Source of the DNA: Heterodontus francisci
Taxonomy: Eukaryota
DNA length: 64,000 nt
Direction of reading: 5' to 3'
Assembly: GCF_036365525.1 (NCBI RefSeq)
Contig: NC_090395.1
Location: forward strand, 65,621,326-65,685,325
Part shown: piece after piece, positions 5,773 to 58,721 of the stretch
Layout: each line of letters begins with the position of its first letter
How positions within the stretch are numbered: the first letter of the stretch is position 1
The notes under the pieces: generated by a model
The model's database searches: none
The model's input: the letters and a program-made list of their open reading frames with translations, nothing else
What the model was told of the DNA's origin: nothing
Position numbers and translations under genes: made by a program

Positions 5773-6096
5773 CAATGCTGCTGATTTGTATCACATAACT
5801 GCAGTTTTTCTCTGATCTGTTGGAGACTGACACGTGAACCATTTCACTGGCTTTTTCTCCCTGATTATTTGAGGCTGTGCAGTAATATTGATGATGTTGC
5901 TGTTTGAAGGATTGACAATGTAGATCCAGTTTATTGATGTCAGAGATCTTTGAATCTTCAGACGGGGTCTTTTCATACCATGTGTACTGAATGGGGAGGG
6001 ATCCCTGGACAGACTCACAGGAGATGGAAACTGAGCCCCCAGAACATGAGCGATCTGGTCGTGATAAAAATCTGACTACGGGAACAGACACGGATT
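5773..6096 (-). CDS. Ig C2-type (FcR-like) exon, cassette B of the CD300/pIgR-like receptor gene
   Basis: cag|AA TCC GTG...ATT G|gtaaga; 324 nt, phase 1-1, open; VSVPV..GGSVSISCESVQGSLPIQYTWY..YYCTASN..SEMVHVSV. Confidence 0.9.
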
Positions 6097-6199
6097 CTGT
6101 GGGAAAGAAACAAACATTCAGATACTGACTGTACGTTTAAAAATCAAATACTCTCCAGTAGAATTTGGGTCAGCTCATTAAAATCAAGAAGTAGAATGA

Positions 6200-8830
6200 G
6201 TTTGAGTCAAGTTAAGAAACAACAAGGGACAGAAAACTTTGGTGGGAGTTGTTTATAGGCCCCTAACAGTAGTGTGGGGCAGAGTATAAATCAAGAAATT
6301 AGAGGCATAATTAAAAAGGGTATTACAGCAATCATGGGGAACTTTAATATTCATATAGACTGGGAAAACCAAATTTACAGTAATATTGTGGATGACAAGT
6401 TCATGGAATGTATACAAGATAGTTATCTAGATCAGTAAGTTGAGAACCAACTCGGAAACAGGCTTTTTTTCGATTTAATGTTCTGTTGTGAGGAAGGGTT
6501 CATTAATCAACTTGCACGAAAGGCACCAGTAGGGAAAAATGATCATAATATGGTGGTATTTAATATTGAGCTTGAAAGTGATTCAGTTTAGTTTGAAACT
6601 AGGGTCTTAAATCTAAACAAAGCAAACTACATAGGTATAAGGGGGAAGTTGACTAAGGTAGATGGGAAACTGCATTAAAAGATATGATGGCAGAAAAGGA
6701 AATTTAAACAGTTAATACATAATTTGCAACAAGTATACATTTCTTTAAGGCACAAACCCTCACAGAAACAGTGGTCCAACCATGGCTAACAAGAGGAGTT
6801 AAAGATAGTATTAAATCAAAGGAAGAGGCTTTTAAAGTTGCCAAAAAGAGTAGTAAGCCTGAGGATTAGAAGGATTGTAGAAGTCAGCAAAGGAGGAATT
6901 GATAAGGAAAAAGAAAAGAGAATATGAGAGCAAACTAGCAAGAGACATGAAAGCAGATTGTAAACATTTCTATAGCTATATAAATAAGAAAGGATTAGAG
7001 GTAGAGACAGGTGATATTACAATGAGGAAAAAAGGAAGGGCAGAGACATTTCTTCACGGTAGAAGACAATAAAAAGTTATAGAAATAATGGAGAACCAAG
7101 GGTCTAGTGAGAATGAGGAACTTAAGGTATAAGTAAAAAATGAGTACTAGTGAAATTAATGGGACTAAGTGGCAACAAATCCCTGATGACCTGCATCCTA
7201 GGGTTTGAAAAGTGGTAGCAGCACAGATAGTAGATGCATTGGTTTTGATCTTCCAGAATTCCTTAGATTCTAGAAGAGTTCCCAAGGATTGGGAGGTAGT
7301 AAACATAACCCTGGTTTTTAAGTAAGGTGGAAGAGGGAAAATGGGGAATTATAGACCAGTTAGCATAGCAAAATTCTAGAATCTATTATTAGGGATGCAG
7401 TAACAGAGCACTTAGAAACTCATGATATGATTAAGCAGATTCAACACGGATGTATGAAAGGGAAGTTATGTTTGACTAATTCTGTTGGAGGGTGCAATTA
7501 GTAGGATGGATACGAAGGACCCAGTGGATGGAGTGTATTTGGATTTTTGAAAAACATTCAATAAGGTGCCACACAGCAGAAATAAACAAGACAATTCCAG
7601 GTTGGCAGGCTGTAATCATTGTGATAATGGAAGGATCAGGACTTGGATCTCAGCTATTTACAATCTATATTAATGACTTAGATAAGGGGACTGAGTGTCA
7701 TTTATTCATGTTTGCTGGTGATACAAAGCTAGGTGGGAAAGTATTAGCAAGGAGGACATAAAGAGGCTACAGAGGGATATAGACAGGCTGGGTGAGTGGG
7801 CAAGAACATGGCAGGTGGAATACAATGTGGTGAAGTGTGAAGTTATCCACTCTGATAGGTAAATAGAAAAGCAGAATATTTTTTGAATGGTGAGAGACTA
7901 GGAAATGTTTACATTCAGAGGGACCTGGGCGTCCTTGTACATGAATCACAGATAATTAACATGCATGTATAGCAAGCATCTAGGAAGGCAAATGGGAGTT
8001 CTGAAGAAGGGTCATTGACCTGAAACGTTAACTCTGCTTCTCTCTCCACAGATGCTGCCAGACCTGCTGAGTATTTCCAACATTTCTTGTTTTTATTATA
8101 AGGCAAATGATATGTTAGCTATTGTTACCAAGGGGTTGGCATATGAGTAAAGAAGTCTTAAACAATTATATAGGGCACTGGTGAGGCCACACCTAGAGTA
8201 CTGTGTGCAGATTTGGTCTCCTTACCCAGGGAAGGATATACTTGCCCCAAAGGGAGCGCAAGGAAGGTTGACTAGACTGGTTCTTAGAATGAGGGATTTG
8301 TTTTATGAGGAGAGATTGTGTAGACTAGGCCTATATTCCCTGGAGCTTAGAAGAGTGAGAGATGATCTAATTGAAACATATAAAATTCTTATGGGGCTTG
8401 ACAGAGTAGATGCTGAGAAAAAGTTTCCCCTGACTAGGGAAGCTAGAACACAGGATCACAGTCTCAGAATAAGATATCAGCCATTTAGGGCTGAGATGAT
8501 GAAAAATTTCTTCTTTCAATGGATTGTGAAACTTTGGATTTAAGCAAAATACTGCAGATGCTGGAAATCTGATATAAAAACAGAAAGTGCAGGGAATACT
8601 CAGCAGTTGTGGCTGCATCTGTGGAGAGAGAAACAGAGTTAATATTTCGGGCACAGATGTGAAACTTTGGAATTCTGTATCCCAGAGAGCTGTGGATGCT
8701 CATGTATTAAGTATATTCCAGACAGATGTTGATAGATTTTTGGGTATTAAGGGAGTTAAGGGATATACGAAAGGGGATCTTGGTGAATGGCCGAGCAGGC
8801 TCACAGGGCCAATTGGCCTACTCCTGCTCC
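6200..8830 (+). mobile_element. Degenerate CR1 LINE in the V-C2 intron of cassette B
   Basis: EN/RT remnants (IMGNFNIHIDW, YINDLD, FAGDTKLGG, RPHLEYCVQIWSP); paralog at 19730-22350. Confidence 0.85.
7995..8099 (+). ncRNA. Short Penelope-type retroelement carrying a minimal hammerhead ribozyme motif
   Basis: GAGTT-CTGAAGA-AGGGTCA.TGACCT-GAAAC-GTT-AACTC; flanked by the duplication AAGGCAAATG; absent from the paralogous site at ~21595. Confidence 0.6.
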
Positions 8831-9312
8831 TATTTCTTGGCATCTTATGTATCTTGTTGATCATGTGTGTCACCTATCAGATCAAGGAGCCTATGAAACA
8901 TGTTAAGCTCAGTGGATTGATTCTATTTTTAATATTTTCTCGGAAGTAATACCACGAGTAAACACTTACTTCTCACTTCTTTGGTTAATTCTGGCTGCTA
9001 ATTTTAGTGACATTTCATACAGTGCAGAGACAGGAAAATGTGGTAAGAATCTCATGTGATATCTACCACAATACCCTGTAGTTAAAGGAATTGTTAATCC
9101 AATAACACTTGAAACTCTTGGTCAGAAAGCTGGACAGGCCACGAATTGGGTGTATGTAACACGAGCCAGATTTCCCGACCTCTGTCCATTACCTGACAGA
9201 CTCTGCACTACTGCAGAGCCTCGGGATATCGGGGCTGCCATGTTTCTCCCAGATAAAACATTGATCAGACATTTCAGTGGAGAGTAATAAAGAAAATCCC
9301 TGGGAAATATAC

Positions 9313-9626
9313 CGTAAGATATTTGTAGCTCGACAGCAAACAGCAGATCGAGGCCAGGTGTTCAATACCACAGTTGTGCCATCCTGCATCTTCTGAGCGA
9401 AGATCCTTCATTATAACAACAAATATTCCTTGTCTCTTTTTATCTGTGATTGATATTCTTTCACGTTGCCAATTTGACTTTACTAAAACTGAGCACTGGC
9501 GAGTCCAGCCATGACACCAATATTTCACAGATGACTGGTACTGCTGTGCCCCATAGCGATAATCTATTGTGATCGCTCTTCCCACAACACCTGTTACTTT
9601 CTTTTCAGCACACAATACATCTGAAA
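9313..9626 (-). pseudogene. CD300/pIgR-like V exon, cassette B (1-bp deletion, B-strand Cys->Tyr)
   Basis: cag|TT TCA GAT...TAC G|gtatat; 314 nt against 315 in the paralog; VGRAITIDYRY..KYWCHGWTRQCSVLV..RISITD..MKDLRSEDAGWHNCGIE, then frameshift. Confidence 0.85.
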
Positions 9627-11261
9627 CTGAGGGGACAGAAACTGAATAGGCTGAATACAAACAAATACATTTTGATAATCGTTGCCACTGTGCACAGAGG
9701 AATCTCTCCACTATATCTATAATACAGTTGAATTCCTTCTTGTTTGTGATGAAAGAAAACATTAATATAGTGCCTTATCACTGTCTCAGGATGTGACAAA
9801 GCACTTCACAGTCAATGACTAAGTTTTGAAGTATGGCAGAATTTTATGCCGACTTCGGGTTCAGGAACAGTGGTATGGGAGGGAGGGGCGCATTAAATAA
9901 GGACGGGCTAAGTTATTACTGCGCTGGGAATCAGTGGGAGTCTAGCGGGAGAGGCTCAATTGCCTTCAGATGTCTGAGAGGCAAAGACTCCACTTCAACA
10001 GGGAGGCTGTCACTGACCTATGAGCTATGATGCAGGACGAGCTGTGCCCCAGCGGACCTGGTGGAAATCCGATGCTAGTGGCACCGAAGGCCACCGTGGC
10101 ACTGACCCTGTACACATCTGGATCATTTCAGGGATCCACTGGGGGCATGTCTGGATTCTCACAGTCAGTGGTCAACGGCACATCAAGGAGGTCATCAAGG
10201 AGGATGAGTTTGTGCACTTTTGCTCAGATCCTAACTCTCAAGCTGAGACATCCATTGAGTTTAGGGCTATCACTGGATTCCCCAGGTACGGGACGTCTGC
10301 ACACAGATGGCCATCAAGGCGCTGGAACACCAGCCAGAGCCTTCATCGACAAGACAGTCTTCCACTCCCTCAAAGTACAACTGGTCTGCGAAAACCGTAA
10401 ATGGATCCTGCAGGTCTGCGCACGCTTCCTGGGAAGTTGCCATGATGCCTACATTTTGAGGCTTTCCCAGGGGCCAGAGCTTTTCTGCCCTCCTTCGTGC
10501 CTTCAGGGATAGATCCTTAGAGACCACGGCTACCCACTGAGGACATGGCTACTAACACTTGTGAGCAACACACACACACACATGCAGAGGAAAGGTACTA
10601 CACCTGCCATGGGACAACACGAGTCACCATCAAGCAGGCCATTGGTCTATTGAAGATGAGATTCAGATCCCTAGATTGGTCTGTTGGACCCCTTCAGTAT
10701 GCTTCAGCGAGGGTCTCACGTATCGTGGTGGTCTGCTTTGCACTGTGTTACAAGAGGTTTTATTTTTGTCCAAAATCTTAGAATTCTATGTGTTTTAAAA
10801 AAACTGAAAAAACATTTTCAGTGGACATGGACACCTGCAAATAGCTGAAATTTTTGGATGTTGATTTTGTATACAAGAATAGGAAGACCAAGCCGTTTCA
10901 AGGAAGCTAGCCAGTGGTTTTTGACCTCCACGGAGCAACACCTTGAATTACAGGGGCGACACTGTGCCTGGCCATGGGATCAGCTCAGGAAGGTTTACTT
11001 TTTTCCGAATCCTTTTAAAAACCAGTGAGTTGGACAAAGAGCAGGCATTTGAAATTCTGACCCATCTGGAGATCAAAATGGAAGACCTAGAAAAGGAAAC
11101 TGTAAAGGAAACTTGCATCCCTTGAAAAGAAACGCTGTATTTGAAAGGTGGCAGATTCCTATTGCCTCCTGTCTCTGAAGAATTCTTGCATCCAGTGTGG
11201 TTCCTGTTTCCTCCTGTGTTTGGGAAATCCTAGAACCTGAAGAAAGCTTCTACTATAACAA

Positions 11262-11750
11262 TCAATGCAAAATACTGCAGATGTTGGAAATCTGAAATAA
11301 AAACAAGAAATGCTGGAAATACGCAGCAGGCCTGGCAGCATCTGTGGAGAGAGAAGCAGAGTTAACGTTTCAGGTCAGTGACCCTTCTTCAGAACTAGCA
11401 GATATTAGAAATGTAAAAGATTTTAAGCAAGTAAAGCGGTGGGGGGGGGGGGGGTGCTATAGATAACAAAAGAGGTGTTGATAGGACAAGGTCACAGAGA
11501 ATAACTGACCAGAAGATCGTGGAACAAAGGCAAATGGTATGTTAGTGGTGTGGTGAAAGACAAAGCATTAGTACAGAGAGGGTGTGAATTGATTGTAAAG
11601 CACAAAGCACTCCAAGCACAAACATTAATTTTTTTTTTTAAAAACAGCAACAGTGGGTAGGCACAGTAGAAACAAACTAATAAACCAAAAAAACTAAACT
11701 AAAATAACCAAATAAAAATGAAAAAAGAAAAAATAACTAAACATTCTTAA
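11262..11750 (-). mobile_element. Penelope-type terminal fragment with hammerhead motif (11359-11396)
   Basis: Minus strand reads AGTT-CTGAAGA-AGGGTCACTGACCT-GAAACGTT-AACT followed by the common CAGATGCTGCCAG...CAGCATCTG body. Confidence 0.6.
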
Positions 11751-11769
11751 TAAATAATAAATAAGAATA

Positions 11770-12664
11770 AAGCTTCTACTGCTGTACTGCTGCTGTGAGG
11801 CCGAAGCAGACCTGTTGCTACACCCCTGCTGAAAGACCTATGTGAGGCCTGCTGTAGGCGAATTGCCTTGAACACCACCCATCCGGCATCTAGGGTGGTG
11901 GCGGGGTGACCTGGAAAATTCGTCCGGGAGTGACCCGCCACGACCTCCAACACCAAGAAGGCCCCGTCGCATTTTACCAGCAGCAACAAGGTCTTGGTAC
12001 AGCCCACCCCGCCCTCCCCCCTCACCGTTGCTCGGTGGCAGGGCCTTGATTTAATATTAAAATCAATGAAAAAACACGCACATCAATTTACCTTGACCCG
12101 GCTGCCATCCCACGCCAATATTACAGCCGCTGGCCGCAACTCGCACACCTTCGGAACTCCGATCAGAGTTCCGAAGCATGAGACTGTTGGGGACGGGGGA
12201 GGCATGAAAATTTCAGGGTGGGAGGTGGGGGGAGCGGGGAAAACCGCTCCGATTGGTTGCAGGGATGGTGGGAAGGGGTTTTGGGTCAAAGGAAATAAAG
12301 TTTGGGGGGGAAAGGTCGTGAGTGAAGACTCACTTTTTTAGGGGGATAGGACAAAAAAATCAACGGATTATTCATTGGGGGTGTGGGAAAGGGAATTGAA
12401 AATTTGAATAAATGTATGTCTGCATTTTTAAGCATTCTGTCACTTTAAAACTTATAATGAGACCAATGGGCCTGTAGCCCTTTAAAAATGGCGGTGGACG
12501 CTGTGCCGTGGTGCCAGACGCTGTTGCTGAGGCTGGAACGGCTGCCCCCTCTACATCATCAGGGGCAAAATATCACAGGGGCTCAGCGACAGCGCATCTG
12601 CATCTGAAGGCCACCGACTTCAAAGTTCACCGTTGCGATGTGCGGCGCTAATCAAATTCAGCCC
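11770..12664. mobile_element. GC-rich non-autonomous DNA element (Harbinger-like end)
   Basis: Ends AAATTCAGCCC like the other Harbinger-type TIRs here; left end unclear. Confidence 0.4.
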
Positions 12665-13599
12665 TTTGAGTGGCATCCAACTATTCGACTCTGGGACACC
12701 TCACCCAACTGAAAAGTTTCCTACCAGAATGTGCCAAACTGATTTATTTTATTATTCTTTCTATTCATAAGAAACAGCTGTAAGCCAAAGCCCTTATATC
12801 CCCGGCTAACTATTTAATTTTTTAATGCATGTGTGTGTGCATGAGGACTAGGGAAATAAGTAGCTTTCATATATATAGATTTATCTCATTTGTGACTAAG
12901 ACTTATTTTTTTCTACTAACTAGTTGTTGTTGTTGTTTATAGAAACCTGATTGGTATGCTTTATTCTGAGGGAGAAATAGAATCTAATTGGCTATTCTTC
13001 AGTAAGTGGGTAAAATCTATTGATATGCTGTGACCTGTGGAGAAGTGGGACTGAATTAACAGTGCATTTCTCCTGCCATGGTTGTAACAACTGCACAACC
13101 AGTCACTACAGAGTGGGGCGATGTTGTACAATAAGGATAGCAAGGAGCATGCTGCCTCCTCGGACGGTGAGGATGTGGAGTGGGAAGCTGGTCAAGCATT
13201 GCCAGATGAAGGACCCCAGTGGTAAGAGGAGAGATGCATAAGATATATGCAAGGGAGGCTCGCGATGCCCTTATACATTCTCCTTTCCTTTGATCTTTAC
13301 TACCAGCTCTGTTGTTGCCTTCCTTCCTTTAGGAAGCATTCACTCAGTGCCCAGGTGTGCACCGCTCAGCATGCAAGCCTCCAGACTTGACCACTCAAAG
13401 CATTATTCCTCACCTCAAGCCCCTTGACTGAGGTAGGGTTGATATGTAACCGCAAAGGCCATAAATGAGAGCAAGGAGATCTTGTACGATGGAAAATAAC
13501 CTTTATTATCCCCGATAACCAATGCTACCCTTTCTATTTACTCATTCGCCCATGAAATTCCTATACTTCTAGGTGCTCTTCTTTATTCTGTTGTGAACA

Positions 13600-15290
13600 C
13601 TCCTACGCAGTGCTCCCCCTGCGCTGTCAGCTGAATTAGAGGCAGGCTATTGACCTTGCTGCCCTTTGGCTAGGGGTGACTTTGTCACTCATCCTGGAGG
13701 GCCCCAGCATGTTGAGGGCCTCTTGCATAGAAACCGTACCACCCTCTGTCGTCAGGGATGAAGGAGGATCTGGTGTCACTGGCAGAGGGGAATAGAAACT
13801 TCTGCCTGTACAAGAAACACCCTGAGAGAAGCCCCAGCTGCAGGAGGCAGCCACTCCTCCCCCCTTGCATGGCACTTGTGCCTCCCTGCTAACCTGAGAT
13901 GTAAGAGGACCTGGTGGTGGCTCCAGGTTCCCTTATCCCCTCTTGCCTTGTCATTGCTGCCTTCAGTTCTTGGTCAAATCGAAGCTATGCAGGTCTGCAC
14001 GAATGTCCTGCAGACAGTGAGTGCTCTGCTGGAGCTCCAGGAGAGCTGCCAATCTGTCAATGGAGGATGCCAGTTTTGCACCAATCAGTGAGAATGCAGC
14101 AGTCAAGGCCTGGATGGGCCACTGCATCATCTGCACTTGAGTACACATTGCCTCTGGCATCTCTGCCAGATGTTGCCTGAACTCTTGCTGCAGCTGCAGC
14201 ATTTCCCGTGATGCTGCCGACACCAGAGTCACGTGATGAGCCTGGGGCGAGTGCATATCCATGGACATGAGGGTATCTGTCCCGATGGAGGGTGTGGGAG
14301 TATGAGGTGACGATTCAACTTTCGATGCTCCGTTTTCCCCCTCAGAGGTGGCAGCTTCACCCACAATTGCGGAGGCTCTTTGTAGATGCTCTGCATGACC
14401 TGCATGAAGAGAACAGAGAAATTGAAGGGTCAAGGGCCTCGCCTTCCGACATGGAAAACACCCCTACATTGGAGACCCTTATAGGCACCAGATGCCTTAT
14501 GAACAGCATGGTTCCATCGCCGATAAGGCACCCTTGTGCTCCATGGTGACCTTACTCACTGTCTTGTGAGGGTGCCCCTATTTCTACATCACAACGCTCC
14601 ATCCATCCCGAGGCCATGTCAGCTCCGTGGCCTCTTCCTCCATCGGGTTCAGAACATGCCACCGGTCTTGGAGCACTCTCTGTGATTTTGTGCTCTCCTG
14701 CAGAGACAAAGATGAATGATGTTGGTCTCCCAGCCAAGACAAGCCCAAGACATATGCTGGTGGTAGTCCAACAGGTAATGATGGGGGCACACAGATCTGT
14801 CCTGCATGTGGCCCCTTTTCAGCAGCTTTGTGAGGGTCTCCAGTGACAAAAAGCTGCCTTTCAGCCCCATTTCGCCATGCCTCAAGCAGCTTGTCTGTAA
14901 GTCCTGGCCCTTTGCCCATATCTGGGTGGGCATGGCTGCTGCACCCATCACACTCTCCTCCTCTGAAAAATACAAGGCCCGAGAGCTGAAGGCGTTAAGA
15001 AGTGCTCACTTTCTCTGCTCAGATGACGTCATTGAGCCGCTTGTGGCACTGAGCCCATGTCCTTGGTGTGACCCCACAGCTGCTGACTTCCTCTGCTATT
15101 GGTAGCCAGTCTTGCTTGGTCAGGTGTCCAGCTCTCCTCCTCCAGTCCCCAAGGAAGTGCATCTCCTCACTGTCGGCCTGTAAGAGAATTTGGAAGGAGG
15201 TATCACTAAAGCGTGGGTCCACCCGGGGTTTTCCTTCTGCCCTTGTTCTGCTGCCTTTCTCCCCTGAAGAAATTCTTAAACTTGACAATG
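13600..15290 (-). pseudogene. Harbinger Myb/SANT DNA-binding gene relic (about 3 exons)
   Basis: PRFSDTSFQILL..TKQDWLPIAEEVSSCGVTPRTWAQCHKRLNDV; second exon ~14556-14699 (RAQNHRECSKTGG..PMEEEA); coiled-coil-like third exon (ORF 13963-14433). Confidence 0.75.
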
Positions 15291-15564
15291 AAACATCACA
15301 TGCAGGGCTGGCAGCCCTTTAAATATGGCGCCACCACCTGCCATGGCATCAGTTGATGCTGGCATCTCCGTCTCCACCTTGCCACCGTCCACTGCATTGG
15401 ATGGCCCCTGTGCCTCATTCCTGTTAATTTGCCGGCCATCGTTCTATTGTGTGCAGCCAGCCGCTCATGACCCTGAAAGAAGCCACACCTGCTTCCGTTA
15501 TCATTGTCGGGACTTGCGGCTTTAACGTAAAATCTGGCCCATAGTCTCTATTGCGATTGTTCTC

Positions 15565-16285
15565 ACTGTAGCTCAGTGTTAGCACTCTCACCTCTGAGTC
15601 AGAAAGCTTCCCCACATCACATACAATCTATGCTGACATTCCAGTGCAGTATTAAGGGAAAGCTGCATTGTTCAAGGTGCCGTTTTTCAGATGAGATGTT
15701 AAGCTGTGGCCCTGTCTGCCCTCTGAGGTGGATATAAAGGTTACCATGGCTCTATTTCGAAGAAGAGAAGAGGAATTCTCTGCAGTAACTAAGCCAACAC
15801 TTAGCCTCCTTCATGGCCTCTGTGGCACATGAAGGGTTCTTCCAGCAGCAATGGCTGCCCCCGTGGCTACGTTGGCACCAATGGAGGGTGGAAACCGCCG
15901 ATTCCCAGGGTCTGCCTTCCTGGCCCCAGCACCGTACATAAACAAACTTACCTTGTCTTCGAGCATGGTTCAGCATAGAGGCACCGTCTCCTTCTTCCTG
16001 CAGCTTCAGAAACCTCCGGCTGGTGCTGCTGAGCTGCCGGCCATCTGATTGGGCTAGCAATTTTGGGAGGTGACTGATGTCCTCAAATGAACCACGTGGG
16101 GTCGGGTGACAATTTTGTCCTGGCGAAGAGATTTCTTAGCTCTTGAAAAAATCCAGCCCCCCCAAAAAATTATCTGGCCATTGACATATTTTGTTTATGG
16201 GACTCTGATGTGTGAAAATTGGCTGCTGCGTTTTCTACATAACAACAATGTCAACAAATCAAATAAGTAATTGGGGTGAAAGACT
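15565..16285 (+). mobile_element. Deu-domain SINE (SacSINE1/AmnSINE-like), interrupted
   Basis: tRNA-like head AGCTCAGTG..AGCACTCTCACCTCTGAGTCAGAA, core GGTGCCG..CAGATGAGATGTTAA, and AAATTGGCTGCTGCG; interrupted at ~15800-16160. Confidence 0.7.
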
Positions 16286-16323
16286 GTAGTGTCTGGTATT
16301 AAACTGGCTGAGTGTATTGTGAT

Positions 16324-17132
16324 AGGCTGCGTTTGCTGACAATGCTACCACTAGGTGGCACTGCAGTGGTACATGCGCAAGTGCAGCCTCTGCCACTAAA
16401 ACGTCACAGTCTGCGATGTCAGACAGCTGCCAGGACTAAAAATGGCGCTGCTCAAATAATCACACAAAGGCAACCTGAACACATGGCAGCACACAATGGC
16501 CGGAGGGAGATAGCGAGCAGGCCAGGGTGGATGGGGAGGGTGGGAGATAGCGAACGGGCCGAGGGGGGTTGGGAGGGAGATAGCGAGAGTGCCAGGGGGA
16601 TGGAGGGAGATGGCAAGTGGGCCGGGGTGGAAACGAGCGTGCTGAGGGGCGGGGGTATCGAACGGGCCGCGGAGGAAGAGAGCGCACCCATCACCACAAA
16701 GGTCTTGATCGAAGAGATTATTGACAATGCAGCCAACAGCTGACGTCATCAGAATGCACTAACTGCGCACATGCGCAGATTGGATCTTACTCTCTGATGA
16801 CGGATGCGCTCTCCTCTTCCCCGGCCCGCTCGCTATCTCCCCCCTCCCACACCCCCCCCCCCCACACACTCGCAATCTCCCTCCTCCCCCCCCCACTCGC
16901 ACTCGCTATCTCCCTCCTCCCCACCCCACCCACCCCCACTCGCTATCTCCCTCCGGCCATTGTGCGCTGCCATGTGTTCAGGTTGCCTTTGTGTGATTAT
17001 TTGAGCAGCGCCATTTTTAGTCCTGGCAGCTGTCTGACATCGCAGACTGTGACGTTTTAGTGGCAGAGGCTGCACTTGCGCATGTACTACTGCAGTGTCA
17101 TCTAATGGTAGTGTTGTCAGCAAATGCAGCCT
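16324..17132. mobile_element. Foldback MITE with long TIRs
   Basis: 16324-16517 is a near-perfect inverted repeat of 16938-17132 (AGGCTGCGTTTGCTGACAATGCTACC...); internal GGGAGATAGCGAG repeats. Confidence 0.85.
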
Positions 17133-18098
17133 TTCTCGATAGTTGGTTTATCCACAGAATGCAGCATTATATATTTCTGCCTCCTGCCTTCCTTCCCATG
17201 TCCCAGCAGGCTCACTTTATATTTGCTCCAAGTCTTTAATTAAAAAATATCCCTCATCTGTCCATTAGCAACATAATTAACCTACTATTAACAATGAGGA
17301 GAGAAACATCCGAATAGAACTTCCTGTTTCCTGGCTCTGGCACACAGTGAGCCTTTAAAGTACTTCTTTATTAAACCAACAGCCTGTTGATATTTATGCA
17401 GCCATTTGTATAAAGGAATTTGCCAGTGAAGCACTTTTACCTCATTGTTTCTCCCTTTAATCTATCCTATATAATTTCCCCTTTCTGTTCTTCTCTCTGC
17501 CTCTTCACCTTTTTTTAAAACTCCTGCAGTTTTAGTGTAAACTTTTCCACAGTACGAGTTCTTCACCCAGCAAGGCCATTGGTTTAATAAGTGTTCAGAT
17601 AAAGTCCTCCCATACTCTACAGGCTGCTCCTCTTTCAGAACTGGTCCCAATGGGCCAGAGATCTGAACCCTTTCCTACTGAGTCATCTCTCTAGTCAGAG
17701 AATTGCATCCCTTATCTTACTATTCTTATACTGACTCCCATGTCACACTGGGAATAATCCTGTGTGTTCGAGGTCCTGCTCATTGAGCTATCTCCAAGTT
17801 CCTGAATCTTCCCTTGCTGAACCTCTTTCCTCTTCCTTTCTCTGCTCTTGGCTGCATGAATCACGTTCACCTTCACTCTCCAAATCCTGCTGCAGTAGAT
17901 GTTGCAGCCAATAAAGTTGAGAGGACGGACATTGATTTAGCTGTTACCATGGTGCTGTATGAATTAGAGAAAAATATCAAATTCAAGTTGTTATTGCCGT
18001 TAGAAAGAAATACTTGCATTTATATAGCACCTTTCACAATCTCAAAATGTCACAATGCTTTTTACCCCCAATTGTTTGAATTGTTGGCATTGTTGTAA
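17133..18098 (-). other. Locally inverted ~1-kb segment (LTR remnant + CR1 ORF1 + SINE tail)
   Basis: Reverse complement of 4540-5118 and of 25020-25650, whereas the surrounding paralogous blocks are in direct orientation. Confidence 0.85.
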
Positions 18099-18204
18099 AC
18101 CATGAGGTCGTAACTGGGAGCAGCCATGTTGCAACTTTTTATTTACACCTCCCAACAGAGAGGCAATATAGCAGTGCACAATGTTTAACTGTTACATATA
18201 TCAC

Positions 18205-18605
18205 AATCAAAGTGATTATTGACAACGCAGCCGGCAGCTAATGTCATCAGACTGCACCAATCTGCGCACATACGCAGATTGGATCCTACTCTCTGCGCAT
18301 GCGCTGCGTTCCACAGTGCCAGGACTGGTTTGCGCATACGCAGATAATGCGGGGACAGCATGGGGAGTTCGCAGCCGAAGACCTTGGTGGTGACGGGTGC
18401 ACTGTCCTCCTCCCGCGCCCGCTCGCTACTCTCCCCCGGCCCGCTCGTTCCCCCCACCCCCCGGCCTGCTCGCTATCTCCCTCCACCCCCCCCCCCCCCA
18501 GGCGCGCTTGCTATCTCCCTCCCTCCTCCACACCCCAGCCCGCTCGCATTTGCACATGTGCCACTGCAGTGCCACCTACTGGTAGCATTGTCAGCAAACG
18601 CAGCC
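18205..18605. mobile_element. Right half of a second copy of the foldback MITE family
   Basis: 18210-18295 matches 16715-16795 directly; ends GGTAGCATTGTCAGCAAACGCAGCC (TIR). Confidence 0.8.
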
Positions 18606-19315
18606 ATCAAGAGAAGGATCTGTGTCTAGCTTTATTCTTCACCATTTGGCTTGGATCCATGTAACACTCAGAGCTAAAAGTTCTCATCTCAGGTGTCATT
18701 TCAGTTCAGTTCTACAACACTCAATCCTGACATCCACCCTAAACTAGGCCACAATTCCTTTGGTCACAGACCTGAAACGTTAACTCTGTTTCTCTCCCCC
18801 CAGACCCACGAAGTATTTCCAGCACTTTCCATTTTTACTTCCCTTCAGAACAGCACTGTGGGTGTACCTACACCCCAAGTATTGCAGCGGCTCAAGAAGG
18901 CAGCTCACCACCACCTTCTCAAGGGCAATTAGGGATGAGCAATAAATGCTGGCCTAGCCAGTGACACCCACATCGCATGAACAAATAAAAAAAAGACAGT
19001 CGGATGTTGCATTTCACAATTCCATCTGCTGAAAATAGGCATTTTGGTTTATGAAGAAGCAGTCAATCAAATTCAATTTTAATTTCTTGGGAATACTGGA
19101 GTTTATGCAATGTTTACACGTGTTTTGGGGATATTTTATGATCCCATCCATTTTGCATGAAAAATGCAAACCAATGGCCTTGTTCATAACTGTTGAGTGA
19201 ATTTGGCCAGTTGCAGTTTCTCAGAGTGACTGAAACAACTTAACCAGTGATCGGTTTGGATAGACATTAATTAAAAAATTCAGTTACCATAGCGTTTGTT
19301 TAAAGTATCACTTAC

Positions 19316-19639
19316 CAATGCTGCTGATTTGTGTCACATAACTGCAGTTCTTTCCTGATCTGTTGGAGACTGACACGTGAACCATTTCACTGGATTTTTT
19401 CCCCTGATTATCTGAGGCTGTGCAGTAATATTGATGATGTTGCTGTTTGAAGGATTGACAATGTAGATCCAGTTTATTGGTGTCAGAGATCTTTAAATCT
19501 TCAGACGGGGTCTTTTCATACCATGTGTACTGAATGGGGAGGGATCCCTGGACAGACTCACAGGAGATGGACACTGAGCCCCCAAAACGGGAGACATATG
19601 GTGGTGATAAAAATCTAAGTACAGGAACAGACATAAATT
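19316..19639 (-). CDS. Ig C2-type (FcR-like) exon, cassette A
   Basis: cag|AA TTT ATG...ATT G|gtaagt; 324 nt, phase 1-1, open; the C-W-C Ig motif is intact. Confidence 0.9.
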
Positions 19640-19729
19640 CTGTGGAAAAGAAACAAACATTTGGATACTGACTGAACATCTAAAAATCAAATACTGTCTC
19701 ATCAAGAGAAAATCAAGAAGTAGAATGAG

Positions 19730-22350
19730 TTTGAGTCAAGTTAGGAAACAGCAAGGGACAGAAAACATTGGTGTGAGAGGTTTATAGCACCTAATAGTAG
19801 TTGTAGTGTAGGGCAGAATATAAATCAAGAAATTAGAGGTACAATTAATAAGGGTATTACAGTAATCATGGAGGATTTTAATCTTTACACAGACTGGGCA
19901 AACCAAATTTGCAGTAATAGTGTGGAAGACAAGTTCATGGAATGTATACAAGATAATTATCTAGATCAGTATGTTGAGAACCAACTAAGGAACAGGCTTT
20001 TTTCAATTTAGTGTTCTGAAATGAGGAAGGGTTCATTAATAATATTGCACTAAAGAGACCTCTAGGGAAGAGTGACCATAATATGGTAGAATTTATATTG
20101 AGCTTGAAAGTGATTTTGTTAAGTTTGAAACTAGGGTCTTAAATCTTTACAAAGCAAGCTACATAGGTATATGGAGGAAGTTGGCTAAGGTGGATTGGGA
20201 ACTGCATTAAATGATATGATGGTAGACAAGCAAATTTAAGGAGTTAATACATAATACATAATACATTATTTGCAACAAGTATGCATTCCTTTAAGGCACA
20301 AAGCCCCCACAGAAAATGTGGTCCAACCATGGCCAACAAGAGGAGCTAAAGATAATATTAGATCAAAGGTAGAAGCTTTAAATGTTGCCAAAAGTGTAGC
20401 AAGCCTGAGGATTGGAAGGATTATAGAAGTCAACAAAGGAGGACCAAGAAATTGATCAGGAAAAAGAAAAGAGAATATGAGAGTAGACTAGCAAGAGACA
20501 TGAAAACAGATTGTAAACATTTCTATAGGTCTATAAATTAGGAAAGATTAGAGTTAAGGACAGGTGATATTTCAATGAGGAAAAAGGAAAGGGCAGAGAC
20601 ATTACTTCATGGTCGAAGACACAAAGAAAATTATGGATATAATGGGGAACCAAGGGTCTGGTGAGAACGAGGAGTGTAAAGTATAAGTAAAAATTAATAC
20701 TGATTAAATTAATGGGACTTAGTGGCAACAAATCCCTGATAACCTACATTCTTGGGTTTGAAAAGAGGTAGCAACATCTACTAGATACATTGGTTTTGAT
20801 CTTCCTGAATTCCTTAGATTCGGGAAGATTTCGTAAGGATTGGAAGGTAGCAATCATAACCCCGGTTTTTAAGAAAGGTGGAAGAGAGAAAAAGGGGAAC
20901 TATAGGCATGTCAGCCTAGCATCAGTAGTGGCAAAATGCTAGAATCTATTATTAGGGATGTAGTAACAGGGCAGTTAGAAAATCAAAATATGATTAAGCA
21001 GATTCAACATGGATAAAGGAAAGAAGATGCAATTAGTAGGATGGATAAGAGGGAACCGGTGGGTGGAGTGTATTTGGATTTTTGAAAAAGCATTCAATAA
21101 GGTGCCACACAAAATTAGGACTCATGAAATTGGGACAATATATTTGCATGGATTGGGGATAGGTTAATGGATAGAGAACAGAGTAGAAATAAACAGGACA
21201 TTTTTAGGTTGGCAGGCTATAATCATTGGGATAACGGAAGGATCAGGACTTGGACCTCAGCTATTTAAAATCTATGTTAATGACTTAGATCAGGGGACTG
21301 AGTGTCATTTATTCATGTTTGCTGACGATACAAAGTTAGGTGGAAAAGTAAGCAGCGAGGAGGACGTCAAGAGGCTGCAGATGGATATAGATAGGTTGGG
21401 TGAGTAAGCAAGAACATGGCAGGTGGAATACAATGTGGTGAAGTGTGAAGTTATCCACTCTGATAGGTAAATAGAAAAGCAGAATATTTTTTGAATGGTG
21501 AGAGACTAGGAAATGTTTACATTCAGAGGGACCTGGGCGTCCTTGTACATGAATCACAGATAATTAACATGCAGGTATAGCAAGCAATTAGGAAGGCAAA
21601 TGGTATGTTAGCTTTTGTTACCAATGGATTGGCATATGAGTAAAGAAGTCTTGAACAATGATACTGGACACTGGCGAGGCCACACCTCGAGTACTGTATG
21701 CAGCTTTGGTCTCTTTACCTAGGGAAGGATATACTTGCCTCAAAGGGAGTGCAGGGAAGTTTCACTAGACTGGTTCTTAGGATGAGGGATTTGTTTTATG
21801 AGGACAGATCAAGTAGACTAGGCCTATATTCCCTAGAGTTTAGAAGAATGAGAGATGATCTAATTGAAACATATAAAATTCTTAAGGGGCTTGACAGGGT
21901 AGATGCTCCAATTTGTTTTCCCCTGACTGGGGAAGCTAGAACACAGGATCACAGTCTCAGAATAAGATATCAGTCATTTAGGGCTGAGATGATGAAACAT
22001 TTCTTCTTTCAATGGATTGCGAAACTTTAGATAAAAGCAAAATACTGCAGATGCTGGAAATCTGATATAGAAACAGAAAGTGCAGGGAATACTCAGCAGT
22101 TGTGGCTGCATCTGTGGAGAGAGAAACAGAGTTAACGCTTCGGGCGCAGATGTGAAACTTTGGAATTCTGTATCCCAGAGAGCTGTGGATGCTCATGTAT
22201 TAAGTATGTTCCAGACAGAAGTCGATAGGTTTTTGGGTATTAAGGGAGTTAAGGGATATAGGAAGGTAGAGTTAAAGTCGATGATAAGCCATGCTCTTGT
22301 TGAATGGCCGAGCAGGCTCAAAGGGCCAAATGCTCCTATTTCTTGGCATC
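19730..22350 (+). mobile_element. Degenerate CR1 LINE in the V-C2 intron of cassette A
   Basis: Paralog of 6200-8830, including a shared short retroelement insertion (22030-22150 = 8541-8655). Confidence 0.85.
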
Positions 22351-22810
22351 TTATGCATCTTGTTGATCATGTGTGTCACCTGTCAGATCAAGGAGCCTAT
22401 GAAACATGTTAAGCTCAGTGGATCGATTCTATTTTTAATATTTTCTAGGAAGTTATACCACTAGTAAACACTTGCTTCTCACATCTTTGGTTGATTCTGG
22501 CTGTTAATTTTAGTGACATTTCATACAGTGCAGAGACAAGAAAATGTGGTAAGAATCTCATGTGATATCTACCACAATACCCTGTAGTTAAAGGAATTGT
22601 TAATCCCATAATAGTTGAAACTCTTGGTCAGAAAGTTGGGCAATTGGGTGTGTGTAACACGAGCCAGATTTCCCGACCTCTGCCCATTACCTGACAGACT
22701 CTGCATTGCTGCGGAGCCTCAGGATATCGGAGCTGTCATGTTTCTCCCAGATAAAACATTGATCAGACATTTCAGTAGAGAGTAATAAAGAAAATCACTG
22801 AAAAATGTAC

Positions 22811-23125
22811 CGTACGATATTTGTAGCTCTACAACAAACAATTAATCGAGGCCAGGATGTTAAATACCACAGCTGTACCGTCCTGCATCTTCTGAGCAAA
22901 GATCCTTCATTGTAACAATAAATATTCTTTGCGTCTTGTTATCTGTGATTGACATTCTTTCACATTGCCAATTTGATTTGACTAAAACTGAACACTCAGG
23001 AGTCCAGCCATGACACCAATATTTCACGAATGACTTGTACTGTTGTGCCTCATAGTGACAATCTATTGTGATCGCTCTTCCCACAATTCCTATTACTTTA
23101 TTTTCTGCCCACAATGCACCCAAAA
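22811..23125 (-). pseudogene. CD300/pIgR-like V exon, cassette A (two in-frame TAA)
   Basis: cag|TT TTG GGT...TAC G|gtacat; 315 nt; VGRAITIDCHY..KYWCHGWTPECSVLV..RMSITDNK..MKDLCSEDAGRYSCGI*HPGLD*LFVVELQISY; stops at 22860-22862 and 22842-22844. Confidence 0.88.
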
Positions 23126-23334
23126 CTGGGGAGACAGAAATTGAACAGGCTGAATACAAACAAATACATTTTGATAACGGTTATCACTGTGCACAGAGGA
23201 ATCTCGCCATGATATCTACTAATACAGGTGAAGTCTTTCTTGTTTACGATGAAAGAAAACATTAATACAGTGTCTTATCACGGTAATGGGTTGTGAAAAG
23301 CACTTCACAGTCAATGACTAAGTTTTGAAGTATA

Positions 23335-24990
23335 GGGCAGAAGTTTATGTGGACTGCGGGGATGGGAATGGAGGCACAGTGGGGGCATTAAATAAGGATG
23401 GGAGATGTCGGACCGGAAGTCCGACATTGTGATTTCCTATCCTGATTTTATCGATGGCAGCAAACATGGAGGGCAGAGAGCAGATATTGACATGACGGGC
23501 AGGCAATTAATGTAATAAAGAAGCCTATTGACACATATTTTGTTCTCAGTTTTAAATTTTGTTAGCGGTTCTCAGGAATCCGGGGACTTCAGGGCCTCAC
23601 CTTTTTGAGGGAGGTGACAAGGAGGCAGCTGCTCATTGCTGGCTGCAAAGGCAGGCCATCAGGAGAAGCAGCATTGACATGCCAGGCAGGGTGGAGAAGG
23701 GAGGGCATCGGGCATCATCTGAGAAGTGGGGACAAAGTTTCCAGCACTGTGGGGGGCATATTGGGGAAGGGGAGAGGGGGGGCGGCCAATGGGCAGGTGT
23801 CACCTCATCACAAGTGACAATGGGGGATGGGGTGAGGTGTTGACAGTGAAGGTCTTAAGCTTAGAGAGAGGCCACCTATCATAGCCCTCATTCATCCAGG
23901 CTTCTGGAAGCCATTGAAGAGGAGGTGGAGCAGAGCGAGGGGAGTTCCAGGCACCGGCAGCGGCACTGCAACAACTTGTGAGCCCACAGGAGGGTCAGTA
24001 GCAGCTTCCAGTTGGTGGAGAATGGTGCAGAGGGGAAAGCCACGCAGAAGAAGGTATCCTCCGGAAGGAGTCTTCCAGTCGAGGCTGAACTACCTATTGA
24101 TGTCTGAGGGGCAGTGCCAGCAAAGACTCTGCTTCAACAAGGAGGCTGTCACTGACCTTTGAGCTATAATGCGGGACGAGCTGTGCCCCAGGAGACTTGG
24201 TGGAAATCCACAGCCAGTGGCAGTGAAGGTCACCATGGCACTAAACTTCTACACATCTGGATCATTCCATGGATCCACTAGGGAAATGTTTGGATTCTCA
24301 CAGTCAGCAGTTATCGGTACATCAAGGAGGTCACCAATGCTCTTTTCAGGCAAGAGGATGAGTATGTGCGCTTCTGTTCAGATCCCAACTCTCAGGCTGA
24401 GAGGTCCATTGGGTTCAGAACCATTGCTGGATTGGCCCAGGTGAATGGTGTCATGAACTGCATGCATATGGCCATTAAAGCTTTGGAACACCAGCCAGCA
24501 GCCTTCATCAACAAGAAGGACTTCCACTCCCTCAATGTACAACCAGGTCTGCGACCACCATAAACAGATTCTGCAGGTCTGTGCACGCTTCCTGGGAAGT
24601 TGCCTCGATGTCTCCGTGTCTGAGGCAGTTCCAGGTGCCAGAACTTTTCCGGCCTCCTTTGTGTCTTCGGGGATGGATCCTTGGAGACCATGGGGACCCA
24701 CTGAGGACATGGCTACTGACACCTATGAGGAACCCACGCACAGGTGCAGAGGAAAGGTACAACATCTGCCTCAGGCAATGCGAGCGACCATCAAGCAGGC
24801 CGTTGGTCTACTAAAGATGAGATTCAGATGCCTGGATTGGTCTGGTGGAGCCCGTCAGTATGCTGCGGCGAGGGTCGTACATATCCTGGTGGTCTGCTGT
24901 GCACGGCACAGCCTGTGACTACAGAGGGGGGAGATTTTGAACAACAAGGATATCAAGGATATGCCTCCTCGGGATTGTAAGGATGCGGAA
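23335..24990 (+). mobile_element. Harbinger left TIR and transposase relic in intron 1
   Basis: GGGCAGAAGTTTA TIR; [46 protein letters not shown]. Confidence 0.85.
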
Positions 24991-26518: not shown

Positions 26519-26555
26519 CGGACAGGGAACAAATGAGAAAAATCAGAATCCACAT
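26519..26555 (-). CDS. Leader (signal peptide) exon of the receptor gene A/B
   Basis: ATG TGG ATT CTG ATT TTT CTC ATT TGT TCC CTG TCC G|gtaagt = MWILIFLICSLS, phase 1; joins V-A to give MWILIFLICSLSVLGALWAE. Confidence 0.85.
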
Positions 26556-33778: not shown

Positions 33779-34042
33779 TCAATTATTCTTTGGGGGCTGG
33801 CTTTGAATATTGATATTACTGTAGATGACATTGTCCTCATTGTTAACAGAACGCCTTGTCACATCACTGCTATGTGCTGCTGACTTCTTTTGAAACTGCA
33901 CTACTGCATATGTAATTCCGTTTTCATCATTATTCAACTGGGTAGCTCCCTCACTGTGTGTTTCTGCTGAACCACTTTGAATATGTCTTCGAATGTGGTT
34001 TACACTTTCATATGGAATACTCATTTCCACTGCTACCAATTG
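33779..34042 (-). CDS. Gene C terminal exon: cytoplasmic tail with three ITIMs
   Basis: ttttag|CAA TTG GTA...AAT TGA; phase 0; motifs IPYESV, ITYAVV, VIYSNI. Confidence 0.9.
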   Translation of the reverse strand, partial: QLVAVEMSIPYESVNHIRRHIQSGSAETHSEGATQLNNDENGITYAVVQFQKKSAAHSSDVTRRSVNNEDNVIYSNINIQSQPPKNN

Positions 34043-35790: not shown

Positions 35791-35794
35791 AGAT

Positions 35795-37253: not shown

Positions 37254-37306
37254 CTGAGCATTATTAAGAGTGTTGTCTCTTCCATGACATGTAATGTCGT
37301 TTGTAT
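37254..37306 (-). CDS. Gene C first cytoplasmic exon
   Basis: tttttcag|AT ACA AAC...GCT CAG|gtaagg; 53 nt, phase 1 to 0; (D)TNDITCHGRDNTLNNAQ; exactly bridges the TM and ITIM exon phases. Confidence 0.8.
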
Positions 37307-49522: not shown

Positions 49523-49611
49523 CCTTCTTGATTTGCTTCCGGTATGAAAGTAGATAAACAGCCAACACAAGAAGACTGGCCGCCAGCACACCGAGCATAA
49601 TGTAAGCCAGC
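49523..49611 (-). CDS. Gene C transmembrane exon
   Basis: cacag|G CTG GCT TAC...AAG AAG G|gtgagt; 89 nt, phase 2 to 1; (R)LAYIMLGVLAASLLVLAVYLLSYRKQIKK; no charged residue within the hydrophobic span. Confidence 0.9.
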
Positions 49612-53750: not shown

Positions 53751-53863
53751 AGAAAAGAAATTTCCTGTATTTGTAGTGACCGAATTTGACCAAAGCTGCA
53801 AGATGTCTCTACCTAGTGATACCAGGAGCTGTGCAGATATATCACTGTAATTTTTCCCTTTCA

Positions 53864-54517: not shown

Positions 54518-54623
54518 CTTTTAGTAAAGTTGGATCTTGAAGATTGGTTCTGATTATCAGCTGAAATTTTATTTGTACTTGTGGAACGTGTAGTTGCTGC
54601 TAATTCACAAGAATATTCAGATC
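54518..54623 (-). CDS. Gene C stalk exon (Ser/Thr-rich)
   Basis: caatag|GA TCT GAA...AAA AG|gtacaa; 106 nt, phase 1 to 2; (G)SEYSCELAATTRSTSTNKISADNQNQSSRSNFTK. Confidence 0.85.
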
Positions 54624-55772: not shown

Positions 55773-55809
<37 letters not shown>

Positions 55810-56608: not shown

Positions 56609-57029
56609 GTAGTCATGGTTGTAATATAGAGAAACCTGGGACCTAATTTGTGCACAGTAAAGTCCCCAAACAGCAATTGACCAGATAACCTGTTTTTCAG
56701 TGATGTTGGTTAATGGGTGAAATTTATTAAGACACCAGGATAACTTGCCTATTCTTCCTTGAATGGTGGCATGCAATCATTTATCTTTACCTGAAAGAAC
56801 AGGTAGGTCCTCAGATTAACATCTCATCTAGGCAAAAGCACCTCAACAGCATATGGTGGATAATGGTATCTACCTGAAATTTAGCTCTGAAGGGGAACTT
56901 GAACCCACAACCTACTAGCAGCAGAAGTCAGGGTGCTACCAACTGAGCACCTGTGACACTTACATTTCAAATGCAGTTTATAGGTGAAATTTCTACCTGA
57001 TATTCTTCCCCTCTGATAGCTAATTCTTT

Positions 57030-57407
57030 TTACTTCATGGGATGTGGGATCACTGGCATGGCCAGCATTTGATGCCCATTCCTAATTGCCCTGGGCTTGC
57101 TAGGCCATTTCAAAGAGCAGTGGGTCATGGCTGTGGGTCTGGAGTCATATGTAGGCCAGACCAAGTAAGGACAGCAGATTTCCTTCCCTAAAGGGACATT
57201 AGTGAACCAGATGGGTTTTTACAACAATCAATGGTATTTTCACGGCACCATTACTGAGACTATCTTTCAATTCCAGATTTTTTGTTAGTTAATTAAGTGA
57301 ATTTAAATTCCACCTGCTGCCATGGTGGGATTTGAACCCAGGTGCCCAGAACATTAGCCTGGGCCTCAGATTACTAGTCCAGTGACGTTACCACTGCGCC
57401 GCCATCT
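57030..57407 (-). mobile_element. tRNA-headed SINE, full length
   Basis: A box GGCGCAGTGG, B box GGTTCAAATCC, core CCATCTGGTTCACTAATGTCC, tail AGGGCAATTAGGAATGGGC. Confidence 0.8.
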
Positions 57408-58409
57408 CCCCCCTTATCATTTTTAGCATATGCAAATTTAGAGGTACTACTCTTTTTCTGACCTTTTAGATGTTCCTCAGTGAAAAGACTGATGAACAAA
57501 CTGCTTCCCGCTCTGAGGAAAATTGAACCGCTACATTCAAATAGCCTAAGATCCTCCTTTTTCAGAACCAGGGTCATTGTTTCACAGTGACTGAGTAATT
57601 CACTTTTTAGTACATGGAATTCTGAGATTTTGACTGGCAATTTGGAATGATAGAATTTTACAGCACAGAAAGAGGGAATTCAGCCCATCGCTATTGACTC
57701 TCTCAAAGAACTCCCCCCTTTGTCTCATTGCCTGTCCTTTCCCCACACCCTCCTAAATTTGCTTCTTTTCACTTCCTTTTTAAAAGTGATTATTGATTCT
57801 GATTCTGACATTCTAATTGGGAATTCTATCTCCCAACAACCAATTGTATCACCTATATTTTCCCCTTTCCTTTTGGTGATGATCTTAAATTTATGCTCTC
57901 TACTTGCTCACTCACTAGTGGAAATAGTTAGTCCCAATTTATCGTAAAAAAGACCCTAATAATTTTAAATTCCTCCACTTAACCTCTGTTCTGATGTTTC
58001 TCTCCTCATAAATAAAACCTCTCAGTGTGCTGCCAATTGCTCTCTATCCCTGACATACTTCCTAATCTAGGACACAACTGTTGGAGGTTGCACTTCTCAA
58101 TTCCATCTGCTAGAAACAGGCGTATTGGTTTATGAAGATGCAGTCAATCAAATTCCATTTTAATTTCATGGGATTACTGGATTTTCTGCAACTGTTTATG
58201 CATGTTAGCGATATTTTATGTAAAATGTCCATTTCCATGGAAAATGCAGATCAGTGGCCTTAATCATAATTGGTGAAGGACCAAATAGAATGAATTTGGC
58301 CAGTTGCAGTTTCATAGAGTGACTGAAGGAATTTATCCAGTGGCGAGATTAGATCAACATTAATTAAAAGCATTAAGTTACCATATTGTTTGTTTACAGT
58401 AACACTTAC

Positions 58410-58721
58410 CAATGCTGCTGATTTGTGTCTTATAACTGCAGCTCCTGAAGACTGACACGTTAACCATTTCACTGGATTTTTCTCCCTGATTATTTGAGGC
58501 TGTGCAGTAATATTGATGATGTTGCTGTGTGAAGGATTGACAACGTAGATCCAGTTTATTGGTGTCAGAGATCTTTGAATCTTCAGACGGGGTCTTTTCA
58601 TACCATGTGTACTGAATGGGAAAGGATCCCTGGACAGACTCACAGGAGACGGACACTGAGCCCCCGGAACATGAGAGATTTGGTGGTGATAAAAATCTAA
58701 GTACAGGAACAGACACGGATT
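58410..58721 (-). CDS. Gene C Ig C2-type (FcR-like) exon
   Basis: cgcag|AA TCC GTG...ATT G|gtaagt; 312 nt, phase 1-1, open; paralog of 5773-6096 and 19316-19639. Confidence 0.92.

Follow-up and report, generated by a model that had tools for sequence, protein, structure and literature searches.

Exons of the window and the surrounding gene cluster

The 64,000-nucleotide stretch of the Heterodontus francisci genome analysed here (the window; contig C25, positions 65621326-65685325) carries parts of two genes, f and g, from a cluster of receptors that join an immunoglobulin (Ig) V domain to a C2-type Ig domain, and that almost certainly belong to the modular domain immune-type receptor (MDIR) family already named in sharks and skates. 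Exons were located by a six-frame scan and then read base by base, which placed three C2 and two V exons in the window, all on the minus strand (Table 1). The V, C2, stalk, TM (transmembrane) and cytoplasmic exons all follow an AG acceptor, and all except the terminal exon, which encodes immunoreceptor tyrosine-based inhibitory motifs (ITIMs), end in a GT donor; matches to Pfam V-set (E-values of 2e-6 and 1e-4) and Ig_3 (E 7e-7) exclude chance by far. An earlier interpretation made from the letters alone, hereafter the sequence-only reading, had described the V exons by three signatures and placed a C2 exon after each. Indeed, both V exons carry KYWCHGWTxxC and RxSITD and both are followed by a C2 exon, but DAGxYxCG is not kept in the second V exon, which reads DAGWHNCG, and both V exons are broken.

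Projection of the exons of an intact paralogue onto 464 kb around the window, together with reading of the splice sites, yields a map of nine genes (a-i) with 13 V exons, 14 C2 exons, 8 clear leaders, 4 uncharged transmembrane (TM) exons with two cytoplasmic exons apiece, and 5 TM exons of the W-x-x-x-R-W type. The shared plan is leader-(V-C2)n-stalk-TM with one to three modules per gene, and the tails fall into two types, an uncharged TM segment with tyrosine motifs (ITIM type, four of nine genes) and an Arg-bearing TM segment (five of nine). The cluster thus goes beyond the inhibitory family of the sequence-only reading, and the map is one of paired inhibitory and activating-type MDIRs. All expected exons are open in two genes, b and i, both of the single V-C2 ITIM type and hence intact inhibitory candidates, with gene b identical to database model P0080. 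Genes c, d, e, f, g and h each contain a stop, frameshift or insertion (in h solely a stop just past the TM segment), and for gene a the exon projection found neither leader nor stalk. The many broken copies reflect birth-and-death evolution, and the number of modules grows as a V-intron-C2 unit of phase 1 is duplicated in tandem; the locus is one more MDIR cluster, whose in-window part is largely broken.

Gene g corresponds to what had been taken for two separate V-C2-TM-ITIM genes, A and B. That assignment is ruled out: there is a single leader and a single Arg-bearing TM exon, so that A and B are both modules of the same damaged gene, which has the order leader, (V-C2)x3, stalk, Arg TM, whose third V, C2, stalk and TM exons lie at C25:65618898-65610002, 2-11 kb past the left edge of the window. 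No leader, stalk or TM exon was found between its in-window V-C2 modules. Tandem duplication of a unit of about 13.5 kb is evidently how the (V-C2)n array arose. The two stops in V1 are TAA codons at 22860-62 and 22842-44, and V2 lacks one base; the gene would therefore be a pseudogene unless V1 and V2 were skipped. Secreted V-C2 forms of either module were also considered and are unsupported, as both C2 exons end in GT donors.

Gene f, the gene C of the sequence-only reading, does lead from C2 to stalk, TM and ITIM exons as had been described, and its five in-window exons join in frame. Its full order is leader, V1, C2, V2, C2, stalk, TM and tail, with the first four exons beyond the right edge, so this ITIM gene has no V exon inside the window. 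The TGA at 33779-81 removes the last tyrosine motif, which paralogues b and i keep, and a homologous motif is still found past the stop, extending to about 33716. Furthermore, V1 is split by a 1.5-kb, 5'-truncated fragment of a long interspersed element (LINE) at C25:65699310-65697800 (L014), flanked by a 36-base target duplication and presumably of an RTE-like family; the fragment matches a copy at a distance of 209 kb with 99.7% identity and the insertion is therefore very recent. The remaining V2 (C25:65686448) lacks the C-C' cysteine pair. In this assembly, gene f would at best give a shortened inhibitory receptor, with V1 skipped, a V2 without the extra cysteines, and the last tyrosine motif lost.

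It is improbable, in our estimate, that these breaks are assembly errors or alleles of a single haplotype and that other animals carry gene g as an intact (V-C2)3 receptor of the activating type. A 183-nt contig of sequencing run X1 (see below) is identical to gene g V3, the LINE in gene f is young, and every Ig exon is of phase 1-1 and so skippable in frame; V1 and V2 of gene g, however, carry three separate lesions of the coding sequence and have lost two motif residues, and a lesion or missing exon marks seven of the nine cluster genes.

Several observations accompany these genes. The V subtype without either C-C' cysteine, produced by a four-residue deletion, recurs as the second V of gene e (C25:65731439) as well as of gene f, and as the second V of a white-shark model (P0036), so it predates the recent duplications of the cluster. 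In the intron before the ITIM exon of gene f (34636-36725) lie two inverted 3' ends of the same LINE family as the V1 insert, 92% alike with arms of about 900 bp. Another LINE inside the gene (39907-42882 and 43986-45097) retains an open 992-codon endonuclease/reverse-transcriptase frame matching Pfam RVT_1 and Exo_endo_phos, and on its 5' side a 161-bp unit occurs in 6.9 copies that are 99% identical. An Rfam scan gave 0 matches.

Table 1. Features of genes g and f in the window (window coordinates)
Feature	Position	Strand	Remark
Gene g second C2 exon, open	5773..6096	-	
Gene g V2, 1-base frameshift near 9362, Tyr for B-strand Cys	9313..9626	-	
Gene g first C2 exon, open	19316..19639	-	
Gene g V1 of CD300/pIgR type, interrupted by two in-frame TAA codons	22811..23125	-	54% to MDIR3 V
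Gene g leader exon	26519..26555	-	
Tandem duplication unit (V-intron-C2), about 13.5 kb, copies 85-92% identical	5105..23360	n/a	
Gene f ITIM exon, ITYAVV + VIYSNI, premature TGA end	33779..34042	-	MDIR3 tail alignment 38%, E 3e-12
Gene f first cytoplasmic exon, short (53 nt), open	37254..37306	-	
Gene f TM exon, inhibitory type, uncharged hydrophobic stretch, open	49523..49611	-	62% to P0080 TM
Gene f stalk exon, Ser/Thr-rich, conserved Cys at start, open	54518..54623	-	
Gene f membrane-proximal C2, FCRL5-type, MDIR-specific extra cysteines, open	58410..58721	-	69% to MDIR3 C2; nests among MDIR C2 in tree

Placement in the MDIR family

Of 253 candidates from a search with the C2 exon, 118 proteins pass E<=1e-5, skate MDIR3 and MDIR5 among them, and all 117 named C2 homologues come from cartilaginous fish. 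In 112 of the 118 a V domain stands directly ahead of C2, the number of C2 domains per protein ranges from 1 to 9, and classification of the TM region by motif gives 34 proteins of the Arg type, 34 of the ITIM type, 2 with both and 48 with neither. Relative to MDIR3 and MDIR5, the window C2 exons are 64-69% identical and the window V exons 48-54%, and the gene f ITIM exon aligns with the MDIR3 tail and matches its ITYAVV in full. A C2 tree of 48 rows places the three window C2 domains on one branch (98/89) with the membrane-proximal C2 domains of MDIR3 and MDIR5, and in a V-domain tree without mammalian CD300 or pIgR rows the cluster V domains group with those of MDIR3 and MDIR5 at 83/87. The suggestion that this may be an MDIR-type locus is therefore borne out by both homology and the shared C2 branch. 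PMC3031540 cites ABC86797.1 as MDIR3 and describes MDIRs as a multigene family with activating and inhibitory forms.

Five features that characterize MDIRs are present: V domains with extra C-C' cysteines (in both window V exons), a homologous C2, variable module number, both TM types, and V-C2 splicing. The last of these was addressed at the level of the family. Contigs of 4 of 24 listed sequencing runs (X1, X4, X8 and X12, from four studies), presumed by guess to be RNA and derived from related animals, were aligned at 80% likeness to the V3-C2-stalk region of gene g. In run X1 a joint skips exactly the V-C2 intron (CT..AC, 2 contigs, 79-nt side) and C2-stalk and C2-to-V joints are seen too, while runs X4, X8 and X12 contain looser V-C2 or C2-V joints. 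From these intron-skipping joints it follows that the MDIR family, insofar as the runs are RNA, splices V to C2 and chains modules. That guess and the 80% likeness weigh against extending the result to the locus itself, and the joints cannot establish splicing of genes f or g. Among the runs containing the C2 exon, none is on record as RNA, and alignment of runs to window positions 46000-64000 gave no exon joint among the matches listed, with repeats dominant.

Three known receptors have nearly the same construction. Skate MDIR3 (ABC86797.1, P0060) ends, as gene f does, in V-C2-stalk-uncharged TM followed by a homologous tail (C2 66-69%, V 53-54%), but has the order V-V-C2-V-C2, three tyrosine motifs of which gene f lacks the last, and a membrane-proximal V without the FG-loop Asp discussed below. 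Skate MDIR5 (ABC86800.1, P0061) combines V-C2-V-C2 with a W-x-x-x-R-W TM segment such as five cluster genes have, gene g among them, but has two modules where gene g has three, the first two with broken V exons. A Callorhinchus protein labelled MDIR2 (AFK11143.1, P0258) has exactly the layout leader-V-C2-stalk-TM-tyrosine motifs and is 34% identical to gene b over 424 columns, although it is more distant and reads Arg for the B-strand Cys of C2. A new V-C2-TM-ITIM family, as the sequence-only reading had proposed, is thus ruled out on the very grounds which that reading had named as a refutation, because MDIR3 and Callorhinchus MDIR2 already have that architecture within one described family; judged from their sequences, the window genes are new members of it, with layouts already known from MDIR2, MDIR3 and MDIR5.

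The V domain, its candidate ligands and signalling

Both domain assignments of the sequence-only reading, CD300/pIgR for V and an FCRL type for C2, agree with our comparisons. Scored per domain, the V domain of gene b matches mouse CD300lf at 72 bits, mammalian pIgR D1 at 42, NKp44 at 34 and TREM2 at 22, whereas FcmR is not listed at E<=0.01. A structure of P0080 modelled on a 39-row alignment (mean pLDDT, or predicted local distance difference test score, of 70, with 89-97 over most of V) consists of V, C2, a short hairpin across the C2-stalk junction and one TM helix. In a fold search covering mainly the V domain, its top structural match is mouse CD300lf (Z 19.7, root-mean-square deviation 1.0 over 103 residues, 39% identity), compared with Z 15.7 for human pIgR D1. 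Mouse CD300lf and human CD300f share with the cluster genes the V fold, the C-C' disulfide, the FG-loop motif K-x-G-x-D-P-M-F and an ITIM tail, but have a single V and no C2 domain.

For CD300lf, PMC6166816 gives Lys94, Gly96 and Asp98 as the cation ligands and counts Met100, Tyr34 and the Cys36-Cys44 disulfide among the parts of the phosphocholine cleft. In gene i the FG loop can be aligned with that of CD300lf without gaps and retains Lys94, Gly96, Asp98 and Met100, and the Asp98 equivalent is present in all 11 aligned V exons of the cluster (2 of the 13, broken at the FG loop, were left out). We therefore favour lipid over antibody as ligand, because the V domain is closest to CD300lf and keeps the Ca2+/phosphocholine Asp: lipid has residue-level support and Ig only indirect support, which gives a reason at the level of residues to consider lipids first as MDIR ligands. 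That a membrane lipid is the main ligand of the MDIR V domain seems to us slightly better than an even bet.

Several results weigh against this assignment. Of 254 database V domains, only 129 have the Asp98 equivalent in place (26 have a nearby Asp, 91 none, and 8 are unreadable), and the membrane-proximal V domains of skate MDIR3 and MDIR5 are without it; lipid binding may therefore not extend to the whole family. The remaining V of gene f lacks the C-C' cysteine pair that floors the CD300lf pocket, and the N-terminal third of V is best matched by trout pIgR D1 (29 bits, against 16 for CD300lf).

The V domains also diverge quickly, and a different kind of ligand has to be weighed. Mean identity among cluster paralogues is 66% for V exons and 83% for C2, and the pooled ratio of nonsynonymous to synonymous substitution rates (dN/dS) is 0.96 for V and 0.62 for C2; the columns of the V loops show 44% identity among paralogues and a dN/dS of 1.12, as against 0.84 for the framework. 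As these values pool broken copies and non-independent pairs, a further reservation, they constitute a weak signal. They are nevertheless what would be seen if the V loops recognized varied pathogen or self proteins in the manner of natural killer (NK) receptors, the CD300-type Asp being a retained structural feature, and the cluster shows the pairing of inhibitory with Arg-TM forms and the recent duplication and loss that typify such families. We regard this as unlikely, though less so than the antibody alternative discussed below: the aligned cluster exons all keep the FG-loop Asp though its neighbours vary, and a dN/dS near 1 may equally reflect broken copies evolving under relaxed constraint.

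It is established that ITIMs act by recruiting SHP phosphatases and that an Arg in a TM segment pairs with adaptors that bear Asp. By analogy, the ITIM tyrosines of genes of the first type would recruit SHP-type phosphatases and these forms would damp, whereas the TM Arg of the second type would pair with the Asp of an adaptor such as zeta, FcR-gamma or DAP10 and these forms would activate. The genome holds a zeta-family adaptor TM exon with Asp (L081:1450-1581), the sole PF11628 match. Paired inhibitory/activating signalling is in our view probable on the motifs present. Three points count against the activating half: the sole zeta-family match presumably corresponds to CD247; the 2006 MDIR abstract reportedly stated that MDIR5 lacks standard signalling motifs, for which reason an activating role of the Arg TM is put forward here as an inference; and sharks are reported in PMC4016189 to be without FcR-gamma.

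We therefore propose, with a probability of roughly 0.6, that the locus is an MDIR cluster encoding cation-dependent lipid sensors held on C2 spacers in paired damping and activating forms. The V-domain FG loop would hold Ca2+ through the Asp equal to CD300lf Asp98, and V, in the cleft lying above the C-C' disulfide, would grip the phospholipid head group of a microbe or a dying cell, while the C2 domains would act as spacers and repeated V-C2 units could add reach or avidity.

The C2 domain, the PIGR locus and ancestry

The best solved relative of the MDIR C2 is FCRL5 (35 bits, best single domain). When 1.84 billion representatives were searched with a profile, and in a word search using an alignment of six rows (best 120 of 181 matches), mammalian FCRL5 comes next after the MDIRs at 24-31% identity, and the named matches within the best 120 of 181, apart from MDIRs and two newts, are all mammalian FCRL5 with the exception of a single CD22-like protein from a fish. 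In the C2 tree, MDIR C2, FCRL5 and PECAM1 group at 96/84 against Siglec/CEACAM-like rows, with long-branch warnings. The Allergin-1/PECAM likeness that had been suggested for C2 holds weakly for PECAM1; mammalian Allergin-1 is not among the named C2 relatives. The alignment with mammalian FCRL5 follows the pattern VSxPVL...GSxPI.Y...YYCTAxN...SE.V, but the FCRL5 ectodomain has no V domain and lacks both the invariant extra cysteines peculiar to MDIR C2 and the Cys-tied hairpin.

The chromosomal setting was compared with the human PIGR and CD300 loci. The PFKFB2-C1orf116 (SARG) pair flanks PIGR/FCAMR in humans, and the SARG and PFKFB families occur together on contig C25 at 58.4-58.5 Mb, 7 Mb from the cluster; a search for IL10 gave no match anywhere in the genome. 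The neighbours of human CD300 (17q25), TTYH2 and NHERF1, belong to the Tweety and EBP50 families, for which matches lie on C24, C26, C45 and C11 (Tweety) and on C24 and C26 (EBP50_C) and for neither on C25, the Tweety filter having been stricter and orthologues unassigned. In 2021 Flowers and colleagues reportedly described a cluster of this superfamily that, in sharks, shows synteny with the pIgR locus. A lone divergent V exon without the B-strand Cys lies 0.66 Mb from the SARG-PFKFB pair (L061:4772-5017, C25:59.15 Mb) and is a candidate for a gene at the PIGR/FCAMR position. The pIgR, FCAMR and FCMR receptors share the V superfamily with MDIRs, and the markers of their human locus lie on the contig of the cluster, but their ectodomains consist of V domains only, whereas V and C2 alternate in MDIRs, the pIgR D1 loop before KYWC is not found in MDIR V, a D1 loop being what binds polymeric Ig in pIgR, and the markers are 7 Mb away.

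These relationships raise the question of whether MDIRs are the antibody receptors of sharks, with the pIgR-like V or the FCRL5-like C2 binding IgM, IgW or IgNAR and the paired forms serving as Fc-receptor-like molecules. The affinity of C2 for FCRL5 in scores, searches and tree and the shared contig with the PFKFB-SARG pair would fit, as would the statement in PMC4016189 and PMC13337447 that sharks lack PIGR, FCRL and classical Fc receptors. If MDIRs bound antibody, this would explain Ig use in animals without known Fc receptors, and while reviews up to 2026 deny sharks FCRL genes, the MDIR C2 is FCRL5-like. We nonetheless consider this reading improbable, given that the single V domain scores far better with CD300lf than with mammalian pIgR D1, that FcmR is not listed and the pIgR D1 loop not shared, that C2 identity to FCRL5 is low and the extra cysteines are absent from it, and that fast V divergence with frequent gene loss fits a variable ligand better than a conserved Fc. 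Of the two ligands, Ig has no residue-level support in the sequences compared, and lipid is preferred.

Two newt proteins labelled pIgR-like (Pleurodeles waltl P0259 and Lissotriton helveticus P0268) have the order leader-V-C2-Cys hairpin-stalk-TM, with W-D-I-L-R-W in the TM segment (W-x-x-x-R-W type). Both newt C2 domains share the MDIR extra cysteines and that of Pleurodeles groups with MDIR C2 at 100/96, whereas the newt V is unplaced in the V-domain tree. No other bony-vertebrate V-C2 protein of the MDIR kind was listed in limited profile and word searches, and a literature search found no report of a newt MDIR-type receptor, the contents of Cannon 2006 and Flowers 2021, which may hold amphibian genes, lying outside it. 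The newt proteins are thus possible tetrapod survivors of the MDIR V-C2 module, which would place it in the jawed-vertebrate ancestor. Taken alone, the proposition that they are orthologues and that the FCRL-type C2 is older than bony fish is evenly balanced; its extension, in which MDIRs descend from an ancestral receptor of PIGR/CD300-type V and FCRL-type C2 near the PIGR locus, are alive in newts and are the missing paired shark Fc receptors for IgM, IgW and IgNAR, is in our judgement very doubtful.

Three further observations concern the surroundings. Next to the cluster, at C25:65.24-65.42 Mb (L062-L075), lies a V-only cluster with at least nine CD300/MDIR-type V exons, three of them followed by Arg-bearing TM exons, and no C2 in the 17 stretches examined. 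On the distal side of the MDIR cluster are a G-alpha-i exon (L043:4401-4760) and a syntrophin-like PDZ frame (L036:8262-9200). Finally, a further C2 exon broadly of this kind, at 32% identity, lies apart on contig C45 (L080:5133-5327).

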